From assembly GCA_021513715.1 (NCBI GenBank), contig CP084167.1, positions 544,001 to 608,000 of the forward strand: DNA of 64,000 nt, written 5' to 3'. Position numbers and translations under genes: made by a program. Below the pieces are notes generated by a model. That model did no database searches, was not told where the DNA came from, and was given only the letters and a program-made list of their open reading frames with translations. This DNA is from Candidatus Heimdallarchaeum endolithica (GTDB taxonomy: Archaea > Asgardarchaeota > Heimdallarchaeia > Heimdallarchaeales > Heimdallarchaeaceae). Of the stretch, positions 20,167 to 36,807 are shown in pieces. The number at the start of each line of letters is the position of its first letter. Position 1 is the stretch's first letter.

Positions 20167-20895
20167 ATGATTGCACCAACTATTGATTCGTTATTGTCTG
20201 CAGCTTTAGGATATTTTTTTGGTTCAATACCTTTATCCTTTATAATTGTCAAAGTTTTTCTTGATGGATTAGATATCCGTACGGTTGGATCAAAAAATGT
20301 CGGTGGAAGAAATGTTATTAGATCTTTCAAGTATAAAGGAAAATCGAATAATGTTGCTTATACTATGGGGTTAATTGTAGCTATCTTTGATATATTAAAA
20401 GGATACTTTGCTATGTGGTTATCACAATACCTATCTTACAATTTTGGAAATAAAGATCCCTGGAGTATTTGTTTTGCAGGTATTTTTGCTATTCTTGGAC
20501 ATAATTGGCCAATATGGTTATTAAGTCATGGCGGAAGAGGAGTAGCAACAACTCTTGGTAACTTAATGTTTTTCAATCCTATTTTCTTTTTAATATGGCT
20601 AGCAACGTTTTTCTTACTCAGTTTTCCTCTGATGTATTCAGCTATTGTTTACATTACTAGTTTTATAGTTATGGGAGTTATTCTATACTTCTGGCCCTGG
20701 TATGTAAGTCCGATGGTAGCAGAACTGAAAAACGACCCAAATCTTGGTTTTATTTCAATGATAATGCTTTTTGGTATAACTCTTGTTGTTCTTTCTCGTC
20801 AAAAATCTAATTTCATGAAAATTAAGAATGGCGAAGCAAAAAGAATGAAACTGTGGAAGATATTCCAAGGAAAGGCAGATGAAGCCCTGAAATAA
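20167..20895 (+). CDS. plsY: Glycerol-3-phosphate acyltransferase PlsY family
   Basis: GYFFGSIP, DIRTVGSKNVGGRN, DILKG, GHNWP and GGRGVAT motifs. Motif 3 reads RQKSN instead of RHxxN. Confidence 0.9.
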   Translation: MIAPTIDSLLSAALGYFFGSIPLSFIIVKVFLDGLDIRTVGSKNVGGRNVIRSFKYKGKSNNVAYTMGLIVAIFDILKGYFAMWLSQYLSYNFGNKDPWSICFAGIFAILGHNWPIWLLSHGGRGVATTLGNLMFFNPIFFLIWLATFFLLSFPLMYSAIVYITSFIVMGVILYFWPWYVSPMVAELKNDPNLGFISMIMLFGITLVVLSRQKSNFMKIKNGEAKRMKLWKIFQGKADEALK

Positions 20896-20935
20896 ATTCA
20901 TTTTTTCTTTTTCTATCTTTTTAACAATTTTTTTA

Positions 20936-21679
20936 TTATATTTGTATTAATTCTGAAGATTCTATTTCCAGCGAAAGAGTCTCTTTTTCATTTTGTATTC
21001 TTAAAAGTCCATTATCCTCAATTCCTTCTACTGTATAGTCTTGATTTTTGTAGATAATATTATTTTTGCATAATATATCGTAAGAATTAAATTCTTTTAA
21101 GATTTCTTCAAAATTATTTCTTAAAACTTTGTTAATATAGTTTTTAATTTGCTTATACAATTCTTTTGTTAATTTCTCATTATCTGCTTTTATTTTCAAG
21201 GATTCATTTATTGAAATAGCTATAGAATTGACTGGAGAGTCTAAAGAAAGAACTTTGTTATTTGTATTTATTCCTATTCCAACGAGTAGAAAATTACAAT
21301 TTGTATCTTTCACTGTATCAATTAAAATTCCGCCTAACTTTCTTTTTTCTAGAATTATATCATTTGGCCATTTAATTTTAACAGGTATAGACAGAATTGT
21401 TTCTATTGCTTTTCTTACTCCTAAAGCAATAGAATAATGAAGAAAAGCATATTGCTTTTGATTTATTTCTTCTTTTTTACAAAAAACAAACGTTCCCCAC
21501 CAACCTCCTTTTGGAGAAAACCATTTATTCTGTTTTCTTCCAATACTTGCAGATTGTTCCTCTGCTATTATTAACAAATCTTCATTTTTTGCTAATTCTA
21601 AATAAGACAAAGCTACATTTTGAGTGGAAGGAACAGATTGAAAATGAATGATTTTCAAGGAAAAGGATTCTTGAACCAT
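20936..21679 (-). CDS. birA: Biotin--protein ligase (no N-terminal HTH)
   Basis: VPSTQ, AEEQ..GRK..KWFSP, IKWPND, KLGGIL and VGIGIN motifs. Confidence 0.9.
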   Translation of the reverse strand: MVQESFSLKIIHFQSVPSTQNVALSYLELAKNEDLLIIAEEQSASIGRKQNKWFSPKGGWWGTFVFCKKEEINQKQYAFLHYSIALGVRKAIETILSIPVKIKWPNDIILEKRKLGGILIDTVKDTNCNFLLVGIGINTNNKVLSLDSPVNSIAISINESLKIKADNEKLTKELYKQIKNYINKVLRNNFEEILKEFNSYDILCKNNIIYKNQDYTVEGIEDNGLLRIQNEKETLSLEIESSELIQI

Positions 21680-21792
21680 TATTTTCGTCGAAAAACACTT
21701 TTATTTAAACTTTTTTTTGTTTTATCAAGATAAAATTATTTAATCATAAAAACAAATTGGGTTTTTAAAAGACCTTTTTTTCTTTAAACTTA

Positions 21793-34733: not shown

Positions 34734-34754
34734 ACAATATATGGAGTGTAACAA

Positions 34755-35237
34755 ATGAAGAAAAAAATAATCTACAACAATAGAGAATACATAATAGAAG
34801 CCAAAGGAAAAGACGAGATAGTAGTAAATAATAAGACTTTCAAAGTAAACTTAAGAGAAAAAAACAAGAATTTTTTCAACATAGAAATACAAGGAAAGAA
34901 GTTTATAATAGAAGTAAGAGATGGAGAGTTCTATTTAGACGGAGAAAAAATAGAAAAATTATCTGTCAGCCCCTATTTTCCACAATTAAAGAAACAAAAA
35001 CAGATGATTAATTCGCAAAAAGAAGTAGTAAAAGCTCCTATTCCAGGAACTATAACTCAAATACTAGTAAAAGAGGGAGATACAGTTGAAAAAGATCAAG
35101 AATTATTCATTTTGGAAGCTATGAAAATGAGAAATAGGATTTTAGTAAATATAGACAAAGGAGTAGTAAAAAAAATATTTGTAAGTGAAAATGAAACAGT
35201 AGTCCAAGATCAAAAACTAGCAACAATTGAAAATTAA
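34755..35237 (+). CDS. accB: Biotin carboxyl carrier protein
   Basis: KAPIPG and the biotinylation motif LEAMKM. Confidence 0.92.
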   Translation: MKKKIIYNNREYIIEAKGKDEIVVNNKTFKVNLREKNKNFFNIEIQGKKFIIEVRDGEFYLDGEKIEKLSVSPYFPQLKKQKQMINSQKEVVKAPIPGTITQILVKEGDTVEKDQELFILEAMKMRNRILVNIDKGVVKKIFVSENETVVQDQKLATIEN

Positions 35238-35301
35238 GAATAATCAGATTTTAAAATAAATTAAACAAAAATAAAATGGAAAAACAGTAAATTTTTTTAT
35301 G

Positions 35302-36807
35302 TTAAAGGTTCCTTGTTTGCTCTAACTTACTTCTTTGTTTCCACAGATTAAGTATTCTTCGCTGCTTCTCTCCTCGTGTTCCGTTTCTTACTCTTTTTGT
35401 TGAACCTAAGCCTATTTTTTCATAAAAAGCGTAAAGAGCAGCAACTTTTATTTCTTCGTTTTCTTCTATCTTTTCTTTGATCGAAGCTTTTTCTATAAAG
35501 TCTGTAGAAACTATTCTTTTCTGAAATTCTTTTGTTTCAAGTATAGTTTTATGGAAATCTATGTTGGTTGTAATCCCACTTATTGTTAATTCTTTAAAAG
35601 CCAACCTTGCTCTTTCTATTGCATCATTTCTGGTTTTTCCCCAAACAATAAGTTTACCTAGTAGAGAGTCATATTCGTTTGATACATTGTATGATGAAAA
35701 GACAAAAGTGTCGAATCTAACATGATAAATACTTGGAGCGATTAATTGTTCAATTTTTCCCGATTTAGGCAAAAAGGTTTTTGGATCTTCAGCATTTATT
35801 CTAAATTCAATTGCACTTCCATTTATTTTTATTTCATCTTGAACATAACTTAATTTTAATCCCCCTGCTACTCTGATTTGTTCAACTACAAGATCTATTC
35901 CAGTTACCATTTCTGTTACAGGGTGTTCTACTTGAATTCTAGGATTAACTTCATTAAAATAAATTTGTCCATCTTTGTAAAGAAATTCAGCTGTTCCAGC
36001 ATTAACATATCCAAGCTCTTTAGCCATCTTACAGACTTTTTCTCCAAGTTCATTTCTTTCCTGTTCTGTCAAAAATGAAGGAGCTTCCTCAATTAATTTC
36101 TGATGAGAACGCTGAATACTACATTCTCTATCTCCCAAATGGATTACATTACCATACCTATCTCCAATAAACTGTATCTCTATGTGTCTTGGAGACTCAA
36201 TATATTTCTCAATAAAAACAGTCTTATTACCGAAAAAGTTCTCGGCAACTGATTGTGCTCCTAAAAGAGAAATTTCTAAAGTTTCAGGAGAGGTTACAAT
36301 TTCCATTCCTTTTCCTCCCCCTCCAAAAGCAGCTTTAATGATTATAGGATAACCTATTTCTTCAGCTACTGCTTTAGCCTCTTCTAATGTTTCTACATAT
36401 CCTTTTGAACCTGGAACAGTAGGAATACCTACTTTACTTGCTATGCTTCTAGCTTTAACTTTATCTCCTAAAAGATCAATAACTTCGGGAGATGGACCAA
36501 TGAAAACAATTTTGCTTTTTCTTACTTTTCTTGCAAATTCTGAATTCTCAGAGAGAAAACCATAACCTGGGTGTATAGCATCACACTTAGCTTTTTTAGC
36601 AATTTTTATTATTTTATCAATGTTAAGATAAGTTTCATTAACTGAACCAGAACCAATACAATAAGCTTCATCTGCTAGTTTAACGTGTAATGATTGAGAA
36701 TCGACTACAGTAAAGATAGCTACAGTTTTAATATTCATAAGTTTACAAGCACGAATGATTCTAACAGCTATCTCTCCTCGATTTGCAATAAGTATCTTCT
36801 TAAGCAT
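35302..36807 (-). CDS. accC: Biotin carboxylase subunit
   Basis: KILIANRGEIA, HPGYGFLSEN, GGGGKGM, RECSIQR and EVNPRIQVEHPVTE. Confidence 0.95.
   Translation of the reverse strand: MLKKILIANRGEIAVRIIRACKLMNIKTVAIFTVVDSQSLHVKLADEAYCIGSGSVNETYLNIDKIIKIAKKAKCDAIHPGYGFLSENSEFARKVRKSKIVFIGPSPEVIDLLGDKVKARSIASKVGIPTVPGSKGYVETLEEAKAVAEEIGYPIIIKAAFGGGGKGMEIVTSPETLEISLLGAQSVAENFFGNKTVFIEKYIESPRHIEIQFIGDRYGNVIHLGDRECSIQRSHQKLIEEAPSFLTEQERNELGEKVCKMAKELGYVNAGTAEFLYKDGQIYFNEVNPRIQVEHPVTEMVTGIDLVVEQIRVAGGLKLSYVQDEIKINGSAIEFRINAEDPKTFLPKSGKIEQLIAPSIYHVRFDTFVFSSYNVSNEYDSLLGKLIVWGKTRNDAIERARLAFKELTISGITTNIDFHKTILETKEFQKRIVSTDFIEKASIKEKIEENEEIKVAALYAFYEKIGLGSTKRVRNGTRGEKQRRILNLWKQRSKLEQTRNL

Follow-up and report, generated by a model that had tools for sequence, protein, structure and literature searches.

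A conserved megasynthase cluster in Heimdallarchaeum as a candidate source of fatty-acyl chains for archaeal membrane lipids

Archaea seem to be without type I and type II fatty acid synthases (FAS I and FAS II), and the acyl carrier protein (ACP) is missing from nearly all of them (10.1101/2024.07.05.601840). The archaeal KT/DUF35 fatty acid synthase also makes fatty acids de novo in an archaeon, but it is CoA-based and ACP-independent, whereas the cluster described here is ACP-dependent, malonyl-dependent and of type I (10.1101/2024.07.05.601840 for KT/DUF35). The closest described systems are bacterial: the Type R secondary lipid synthases of Koribacter, Solibacter, Elusimicrobium and Roseiflexus, which are built on a PfaA homolog and whose product is unknown, and the Type S cluster of Desulfobacterium autotrophicum, which was proposed to be a core fatty acid synthase (Shulse and Allen 2011, PMC3098273). 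Here we analysed a window of 64,000 nucleotides from Candidatus Heimdallarchaeum endolithica (CP084167.1, positions 544,001 to 608,000), a genome that consists of a single contig (3,326,783 bp, also given as 3.33 Mb). The window encodes an iterative type I megasynthase (hereafter the synthase) together with an acyl-CoA carboxylase, the biotin ligase BirA and a hydrolase. Judged from sequence, this six-gene core is rather likely a de novo fatty-acid module that feeds membrane glycerolipids, either diacyl lipids or acyl/prenyl hybrids.

With the lipid divide and eukaryogenesis in view, it has long been asked whether natural membranes of fatty-acyl esters exist in any archaeon. Published work reports plsY and plsC from Asgard archaea, but no source of acyl chains for them (PMC6737245, PMC6431249, PMC8813620), and an ACP in Heimdall genomes was mentioned in passing (PMC10307638 supplement). 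The cluster would supply the missing acyl source, and FakAB the missing activation step. Our literature search, which left out most subscription journals (including Villanueva 2017 and Spang 2019), found no paper on this synthase in Asgard archaea, on Asgard FakAB, or on a link to the loss of geranylgeranylglyceryl phosphate synthase (GGGPS). What is new is that the synthase is near-universal in one clade (53 of 59 genomes), together with GGGPS loss, PlsY and a FakA-type kinase.

In the synthase, a single polypeptide unites all type I FAS domains (AT, KS, KR, DH, ER and ACP), and their catalytic residues are intact; the order is ER'-ER-KS1-AT-KS2-ACP-ACP-ACP-KR-DH-PPTase (PPTase, phosphopantetheinyl transferase). 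The Type R order KS-MAT-(CLF/second KS)-ACP(3-6)-KR is found in it, with three ACPs. Both systems have one PfaA homolog with KS-MAT-second KS-ACP(n)-KR and a linked PPTase, and Koribacter also has a linked subunit of acetyl-CoA carboxylase (ACC). They differ in that the ER pair, the DH and the PPTase are fused into one chain in the Asgard synthase, whereas the Type R PPTase is encoded by a separate downstream gene, and in that a full ACC, BirA and hydrolase are conserved around the synthase in an archaeal host; archaea are unmentioned in the Type R description (PMC3098273). In addition, the second KS of Type R is annotated as a chain-length factor (CLF), whereas KS2 of the Asgard synthase keeps its Cys-His-His triad; the original label may be loose. 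Since the triads of KS1 and KS2 are both retained across 131 homologs, we concluded that KS2 is not a chain-length factor. It is apparently catalytically active, and FabF is its nearest relative among solved structures. In the KS tree, the Asgard clade lies among bacterial relatives of like architecture. We conclude that the synthase resembles the uncharacterised secondary lipid synthases of Type R/S; the alignments and the tree comprised relatives among which no named Type R protein was identified.

Relatives of 3.7-4.0 kaa in Desulfobacteraceae, which by their taxonomy would belong to Type S, share with the Asgard synthase an N-terminal NMO/FabK-like ER and adjacent genes for PPTase and carboxyltransferase, but branch apart in a distant clade of their own; their PPTase is encoded by a free gene, and the one examined has three KS. 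A Desulfobacteraceae metagenome-assembled genome (MAG) with an ER-fused synthase has no stand-alone FabF, which agrees with the core synthase idea for Type S (PMC3098273). The best NCBIfam match of the Heimdallarchaeum protein was TIGR02813 (PfaA), with a score of 969.1 that is below the cut-off of 1010.1. Polyunsaturated fatty acid (PUFA) synthase, in its PfaA/PfaD part, has KS-MAT, tandem ACPs, KR, a polyketide synthase (PKS)-type DH and an FMN-dependent ER in common with it, but the ER studied here is nearer to FabK than to PfaD. Neither PfaB nor PfaC with KS-CLF and FabA-type dehydratase/isomerases was found at the locus, and no FabZ/FabA-type match was obtained in the genome. Since PfaB, the PfaC-type dehydratase/isomerases and a CLF are missing, the enzyme has no means of forming methylene-interrupted cis double bonds, and we rejected a PUFA synthase.

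Single-chain iterative synthesis is common to the Asgard synthase, the FAS I of fungi and CMN bacteria and that of animals, and fungal FAS also resembles the synthase in its FMN TIM-barrel ER and fused PPTase. Animal FAS differs in its single KS, MDR-type ER and fused thioesterase. Fungal FAS and the FAS I of CMN bacteria have another domain order, and the scaffold domains of fungal FAS are absent from the Asgard synthase according to Pfam. We see no sign that the synthase is an ancestor of eukaryotic FAS, though no tree was built for this question, and its layout is not homologous to that of the animal or fungal enzymes.

The N-terminal ~700 residues of the synthase form two related TIM barrels (AlphaFold pLDDT 93; the halves are homologous), for which the top Foldseek matches were FabK enoyl-ACP reductases (TM 0.86-0.88 by target). 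The catalytic His470, shared by all 49 sequences compared, lies in the second barrel; the first, with Lys142 in its place, is probably non-catalytic. The catalytic residues of KR, DH and PPTase are intact, with Glu replacing Asp in the DH, and catalytic residues of the synthase are conserved in the 131 homologs. No methyltransferase or condensation domain was detected in the synthase with Pfam, and no further convincing PPTase or ACP was found in the genome with the synthase domains as queries. The matches of a KS1 homology search were all multi-module trans-AT PKS. The residues of the synthase point to the use of malonyl-CoA and to a reducing cycle. The full reductive cycle KS-AT-ACP-KR-DH-ER recognized in a preliminary description of the window is borne out by the intact residues, and can be refined by a second, apparently active KS, by the synthase's own C-terminal PPTase and by the nature of the ER, an N-terminal FabK-type pair and not an MDR-type domain. 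The attachment residue of the ACPs is predominantly Thr in the family (626 Thr versus 16 Ser in 229 proteins), as opposed to 2 Thr versus 289 Ser in trans-AT PKS used as a control; with its Ser, Thr and Ser sites, the synthase is a natural internal control for phosphopantetheinylation of Thr.

The ACC set is complete, with biotin carboxylase (BC), biotin carboxyl carrier protein (BCCP), carboxyltransferase (CT) and BirA, the biotinylation motif and an acetyl-type residue. The CT gave MmdA and PccB as best NCBIfam and PDB matches. At the PccB-422 specificity position, 39 of 39 locus copies have Ile, the same motif as in PDB 1XNW. This motif is that of the D422I variant, which accepts acetyl-CoA, and we infer that the CT prefers acetyl-CoA. 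Close orthologs of the CT within the class are confined to synthase-bearing families and are missing from synthase-free members. Of the malonyl- or methylmalonyl-CoA supply suggested earlier, the malonyl-CoA part is supported, while a methylmalonyl-fed, isoprenoid-mimicking product is disfavoured by the xAFH motif of the AT and by Ile422 of the CT. The hydrolase, which has a weak match to AntI, is a probable chain-releasing thioesterase.

The positions and strands of all seven genes were corroborated, and the identity of each is backed by Pfam and NCBIfam (Table 1). The gaps are only 21 bp between CT and synthase, 35 bp between synthase and hydrolase and 21 bp between hydrolase and BCCP; a promoter scan at the locus gave a result no better than chance. 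On the scale of codon usage typical of the genome, the synthase ranks at the 75th percentile, and H. aukensis PM71, a member of the same genus, has the same locus with a KS identity of 96%. A chimeric assembly or contamination, against which contig taxonomy and continuity were to be checked, is excluded by the single contig, the native codon usage, the H. aukensis locus and the synteny across Asgard genomes. Of the earlier view of the cluster, its native, archaeal, ACP-dependent and malonyl-CoA-fed character is supported; that it is a self-contained, seven-gene unit is not. In H. aukensis (C1:476000-506000), an exact tandem duplication of 1,993 bp cuts the synthase into open reading frames of 1506 and 2653 aa, and a 2.7-kb duplication of 99.9% identity repeats the PPTase end, the hydrolase and BCCP; both are probably assembly artefacts or very recent duplications.

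Table 1 Features of the Heimdallarchaeum synthase locus (positions in the window)
Feature	Position	Strand	Basis
plsY, PlsY-family acyltransferase, divergent paralog, 1 of 3 in genome	20167..20895	+	PF02660 E 9e-34
birA, BirA biotin ligase, sole genome copy	20936..21679	-	TIGR00121 above cut-off
CT, acyl-CoA carboxyltransferase, PccB/AccB type	21793..23367	+	PF01039
Synthase, iterative type I megasynthase, 3515 aa	23389..33936	+	Pfam, NCBIfam, catalytic residues
Tandem FabK-like FMN TIM barrels (ER'-ER)	23389..25428	+	AlphaFold model, Foldseek
KS1, Cys919 + His1053 + His1094 intact	25522..26940	+	
AT, Ser1296 + Arg1321 + xAFH motif (malonyl type)	26980..27885	+	TIGR00128 FabD 247.5 bits
KS2, FabF-like, Cys1860 + His2008 + His2048	28186..29778	+	
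Three ACP domains, phosphopantetheine sites Ser2217, Thr2323, Ser2434	29914..30801	+	
KR, NADPH motif, Lys2863 + Tyr2900	31507..32181	+	PF08659
DH, PKS-type double hot-dog, His3035 + Glu3198 (usual residue Asp)	32416..33258	+	PF21089 + PF14765 above cut-off
PPTase, fused, Sfp-type	33373..33924	+	PF22624 + PF01648
Alpha/beta serine hydrolase, GxSxG + Asp + His	33972..34733	+	PF12146
BCCP, biotin carboxyl carrier protein, MKM motif	34755..35237	+	PF00364
BC, biotin carboxylase	35302..36807	-	NF006367 above cut-off

To follow the distribution of the synthase, we scored it as present in a genome when KS1 matched with E < 1e-40, in 400 genomes of the phylum. It was present in 68 of them. With families coded by database label (f1, Heimdallarchaeaceae; f4, Kariarchaeaceae; f19 and f20, Lokiarchaeia; by elimination, f7 is probably Gerdarchaeales and f5 and f6 Hodarchaeales), its occurrence was 27/31 in f1, 1/1 in f2, 2/3 in f3, 11/12 in f4, 12/12 in f7, 3/14 in f19 and 12/135 in f20. 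In the 40 locus stretches examined for synteny, the conserved core, with rearrangements, comprises six genes: birA, CT, synthase, hydrolase, BCCP and BC. This synteny spans Heimdallarchaeaceae, Kariarchaeaceae, a third family of the Heimdall class and some Lokiarchaeia. birA adjoins the cluster in most Heimdallarchaeaceae and Loki loci, and the hydrolase lies in the cluster in most f1, f3, f7, f19 and f20 loci, while in f4 it is not adjacent. In one Kariarchaeaceae genus the fused ER is missing and a FabI-like SDR directly follows the synthase, so that selection appears to maintain enoyl reduction. In two Heimdallarchaeaceae loci, a second CT and BC pair stands in tandem upstream and replaces birA.

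In a midpoint-rooted FastTree phylogeny of KS1 and KS2, the Asgard copies formed one clade (0.999) with family-level subclades, in which the Loki copies were sister to those of Heimdallarchaeaceae (1.0); this suggests that the synthase was transferred into Loki. The synthase is single-copy and follows the family-level phylogeny. Thermoplasmatota-type and bacterial relatives fall outside the Asgard clade and often stand beside carboxylase genes too. The PPTase is fused in most archaeal members and is a separate gene in three bacterial loci. In the bacterial MAG GCA_029781975.1, the synthase lies between an acyl-CoA dehydrogenase gene and a gene for a 1862-aa single-chain carboxylase (BC-BCCP-ACC_central-CT) of eukaryote-like layout. 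The same acyl-CoA dehydrogenase precedes the synthase at a second bacterial locus, where it may stand in for a missing enoyl reductase.

We compared the occurrence of the synthase with that of further lipid genes. In the 59-genome clade of f1-f4 and f7, the synthase was found in 53 genomes, PlsY in 59, a FakA-type protein in 55 and canonical GGGPS in 1; the corresponding numbers for the other 341 genomes were 15, 99, 9 and 301. Many of these genomes are incomplete MAGs, while this genome and that of H. aukensis PM71 are single contigs. Searches of this genome with profiles of Asgard GGGPS, both canonical and divergent, yielded no ortholog: triosephosphate isomerase was the best match, whereupon we rejected a hidden divergent GGGPS, and the second match resembled IMP dehydrogenase. 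With GGGPS not found, the canonical archaeal diether set of this genome is incomplete. G1PDH, CarS (two copies) and GlpK were above cut-off, a DGGGPS-like protein was weak (102 bits), and GpsA was not found. Tetraether synthase (Tes) was not found in any of the 13 Heimdall-class genomes tested. Two strongly divergent GGGPS-like subfamilies, with 21-31% identity to canonical Asgard GGGPS, occur in f5, f6 and one f4 genus; the enzyme seems to be either lost or in the course of divergence throughout the Heimdall class. The second carS of this genome (G000:C1:932881-937053) is co-oriented with genes for an unknown protein, a nucleotidyltransferase-like protein, a PAP2-type phosphatase and an alpha/beta hydrolase, a possible lipid head-group or remodelling cluster.

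In 30 genomes tested for DGGGPS, it was missing in only two, G134 and G136, which belong to the same synthase-bearing Loki genus and are also without GGGPS. G134 (GCA_021498095.1) is a single-contig genome that encodes a synthase with five ACPs, GpsA, a CarS-like protein and three members of the PlsC family, and in which GGGPS, DGGGPS, G1PDH, PlsY and DegV were not found. Judged by gene content, it is the clearest candidate for ester lipids on sn-glycerol-3-phosphate (G3P) in an archaeon. Loss of G1PDH or presence of GpsA was rejected as a correlate of the synthase in Loki, since G1PDH is missing in 19/19 Loki-family genomes and GpsA is present in two synthase-free ones.

The genes that would carry fatty acids into glycerolipids lie mostly outside the cluster. 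plsY adjoins the synthase only in Heimdallarchaeum, the examined loci of other genera being without it at this place, and we therefore rejected it as a conserved cluster member; the synteny survey, which recovered the six-gene core in the Heimdall class and some Loki, does not bear out its place in the unit. PlsY requires acyl-phosphate, for which the candidate source, FakAB, is encoded elsewhere in the genome. A genome-wide search for plsX, plsC, fakAB, gpsA and glpK revealed FakA-type, DegV/FakB and GlpK proteins; PlsX (PF02504) and PlsC (PF01553) had no match in this genome or in H. aukensis PM71, and a lack of PlsC was also reported in PMC8813620. Over the whole genome, FakA/FakB, three PlsY and the lack of GGGPS give the proposed link to acyl-glycerophosphate lipids more support than could be seen in the preliminary description of the window.

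The genome encodes two FakA-type DAK2 proteins (best matches YloV and FakA) and nine DegV/FakB matches. In the FakA-type proteins, the first ~200 of 549 model positions were aligned, with a score below cut-off; they are N-terminal forms of 209-227 aa in f1 and about 330 aa in f7, and their genes are confined to the Heimdall class. Family f7 has a fakA-degV-plsY operon, seen in genome G081 (G081:C6:63849-66514), with similar fakA/plsY spacing in several other f7 genomes. There are 3-8 PlsY and 9-11 DegV in f1 and f7 genomes, with up to 8 PlsY matches in f7 and 11 DegV in G081. This set has FakA-type DAK2 domains, several DegV/FakB and PlsY in common with the FakAB-PlsY system of Firmicutes, but differs from it in the shortened FakA, in PlsX and PlsC not being found, in Gln replacing His177 in two of three PlsY and in a fatty-acid source that would be internal.

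The PlsY of the window scored 124.5 bits with TIGR00023, below the cut-off of 137.2, and has Gln for His177 (Q212, about 20800-20802), Arg for Thr41 and Arg for Lys104. One paralog also has Gln at His177, and the third PlsY, at C1:2094437, retains His; it scored 175.1 bits, above cut-off, and has the HxxN motif (His177/Asn180) that binds glycerophosphate. PlsY takes both sn-glycerol-1-phosphate (G1P) and G3P (PMC13400652). His177 binds the 2-OH of G3P, and the H177Q variant of Aquifex PlsY has 1% activity on G3P remaining (PMC5700162). Because of this binding role and the residual activity, the two Gln-type PlsY probably either act on another acceptor, for example G1P or a lyso-lipid, or have low activity. 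The His-type plsY lies directly downstream of a gene for an ADP-forming acyl-CoA synthetase (G000:C1:2094437-2097337), an arrangement that may offer another connection between acyl-CoA and acyl-phosphate.

The following route appears likely from these genes. BirA would biotinylate BCCP, and BC, BCCP and CT would carboxylate acetyl-CoA to malonyl-CoA, activities that are known for these families. The fused PPTase would prime the synthase's own ACPs, the AT would load malonyl units, and iterative condensation, ketoreduction, dehydration and FabK-type enoyl reduction would yield mostly saturated acyl chains, which the co-oriented hydrolase may set free as fatty acids. The FakA-type proteins and the nine DegV/FakB proteins could then make acyl-phosphate, with no need of PlsX, and PlsY paralogs could esterify it to glycerophosphate; here the genes are present and the flux is predicted. 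The products would be diacyl lipids, if a Gln-type PlsY replaces the missing PlsC, or 1-acyl/2-prenyl-ether hybrids. Acyl-ester products are likely because GGGPS and Tes were undetected while G1PDH, GlpK, the DGGGPS-like enzyme and two CarS are kept. A bolder version, which we put forward tentatively, is that the Heimdall clade and, independently, one Lokiarchaeia genus acquired the synthase and crossed the lipid divide: they would have dropped the committed step of ether lipid synthesis and make membranes from megasynthase fatty acids, as diacyl or acyl/prenyl hybrid lipids on G1P or G3P, with divergent PlsY replacing PlsC.

Several observations weigh against a membrane role of the module. 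The correlation amounts to about two evolutionary events and not 59, as related genomes are not independent. The synthase is found in 0/24 genomes of f5 and f6, an order-level sister group within the class, and nine f5 genomes without it have FakAB and PlsY, so that scavenging of fatty acids alone is possible. Conversely, f16 and f25 have neither GGGPS nor synthase, two closed genomes without synthase are also without GGGPS, and MK-D1 has no GGGPS although isoprenoid ethers are probable in it (PMC7015854); a non-canonical GGGPS may therefore exist. Three Kariarchaeaceae genomes keep a divergent GGGPS-like gene, and this genome retains G1PDH, CarS, DGGGPS-like and GGR-family genes. The MK-D1 precedent and the retained G1PDH, CarS, DGGGPS-like and GGR-family genes would suit a minor or specialised acyl lipid (a glycolipid, a wax, protein or sugar acylation, or storage) beside a bulk membrane of isoprenoid ethers made with an unrecognised GGGPS, with FakAB-PlsY serving scavenging only. 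The synthase-bearing f20 Loki, which keep GGGPS and, in the two tested, DGGGPS and Tes as well, fit this explanation, as do the unconserved adjacency of plsY and the bacterial carriers: FabF and FabZ each occur in two of three, which disproves that all of them lack FAS II and recalls the name 'secondary lipid synthase'. We nevertheless regard a specialised lipid as rather unlikely, since the synthase is near-universal in the clade without GGGPS and Tes, G134 and G136 lack both ether-forming enzymes, and the numbers of PlsY and DegV in f1 and f7 suggest heavy acyl-lipid traffic.

The two KS could also join or branch chains to give long, branched or membrane-spanning acyls that replace tetraethers. 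Both intact triads, the non-standard Thr ACPs and His-Glu DH of the family and the lack of Tes in the clade would be in line with such a backbone, but the AT and CT signatures indicate plain malonyl units, methyltransferase and condensation domains are both missing, and the closeness of KS2 to FabF fits elongation; we consider it improbable. Least credible, and by a long way from being likely, is a catabolic carboxylase (a propionyl-CoA carboxylase or a decarboxylase) that neighbours a secondary-metabolite PKS by chance. The MmdA and PccB matches of the CT and the AntI match of the hydrolase could be read in this way, but carboxylase genes flank the synthase in Asgard, Thermoplasmatota-type and some bacterial loci, the CT ortholog disappears with the synthase within the class, the conserved core has no tailoring, export or resistance genes, and the synthase, a single-copy gene, follows the phylogeny of the families.

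If the module does feed membranes, this would demonstrate that such a change of lipids can occur and has occurred among close relatives of eukaryotes; it would not demonstrate that eukaryotes inherited it. The direct bearing on eukaryogenesis claimed earlier is reduced to an indirect one by the absence of the synthase from the probable Hodarchaeales and by a layout unlike that of animal and fungal FAS. From the absence of GGGPS follows a sharp prediction for organisms that are named and enriched and whose genomes are closed, and an acyl product would be the first for a large uncharacterised synthase family with mostly Thr ACPs.

Elsewhere in the window, a gene at 14498-18643 encodes a secreted 1381-aa protein, membrane-anchored at its C terminus, in which FG-GAP/VCBS-like beta-propeller repeats occur along with numerous DTDxDG repeats of the calcium-binding kind, and a gene for a TnpB-like (IS200/IS605) RNA-guided nuclease lies at 54141-55385. 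Four genes (18895-20019, 46785-47903, 48126-49232 and 55764-56876) encode seven-helix membrane proteins of ~370 aa with a C-terminal longin/roadblock-like domain; this family has several paralogs in the genome, and the one member tested had no Pfam match. Arf-like and Rab/Ras-like small GTPases at 50803-51366, 57365-57925 and 8608-9147 are Asgard eukaryotic signature proteins and support the Asgard taxonomy of the window.

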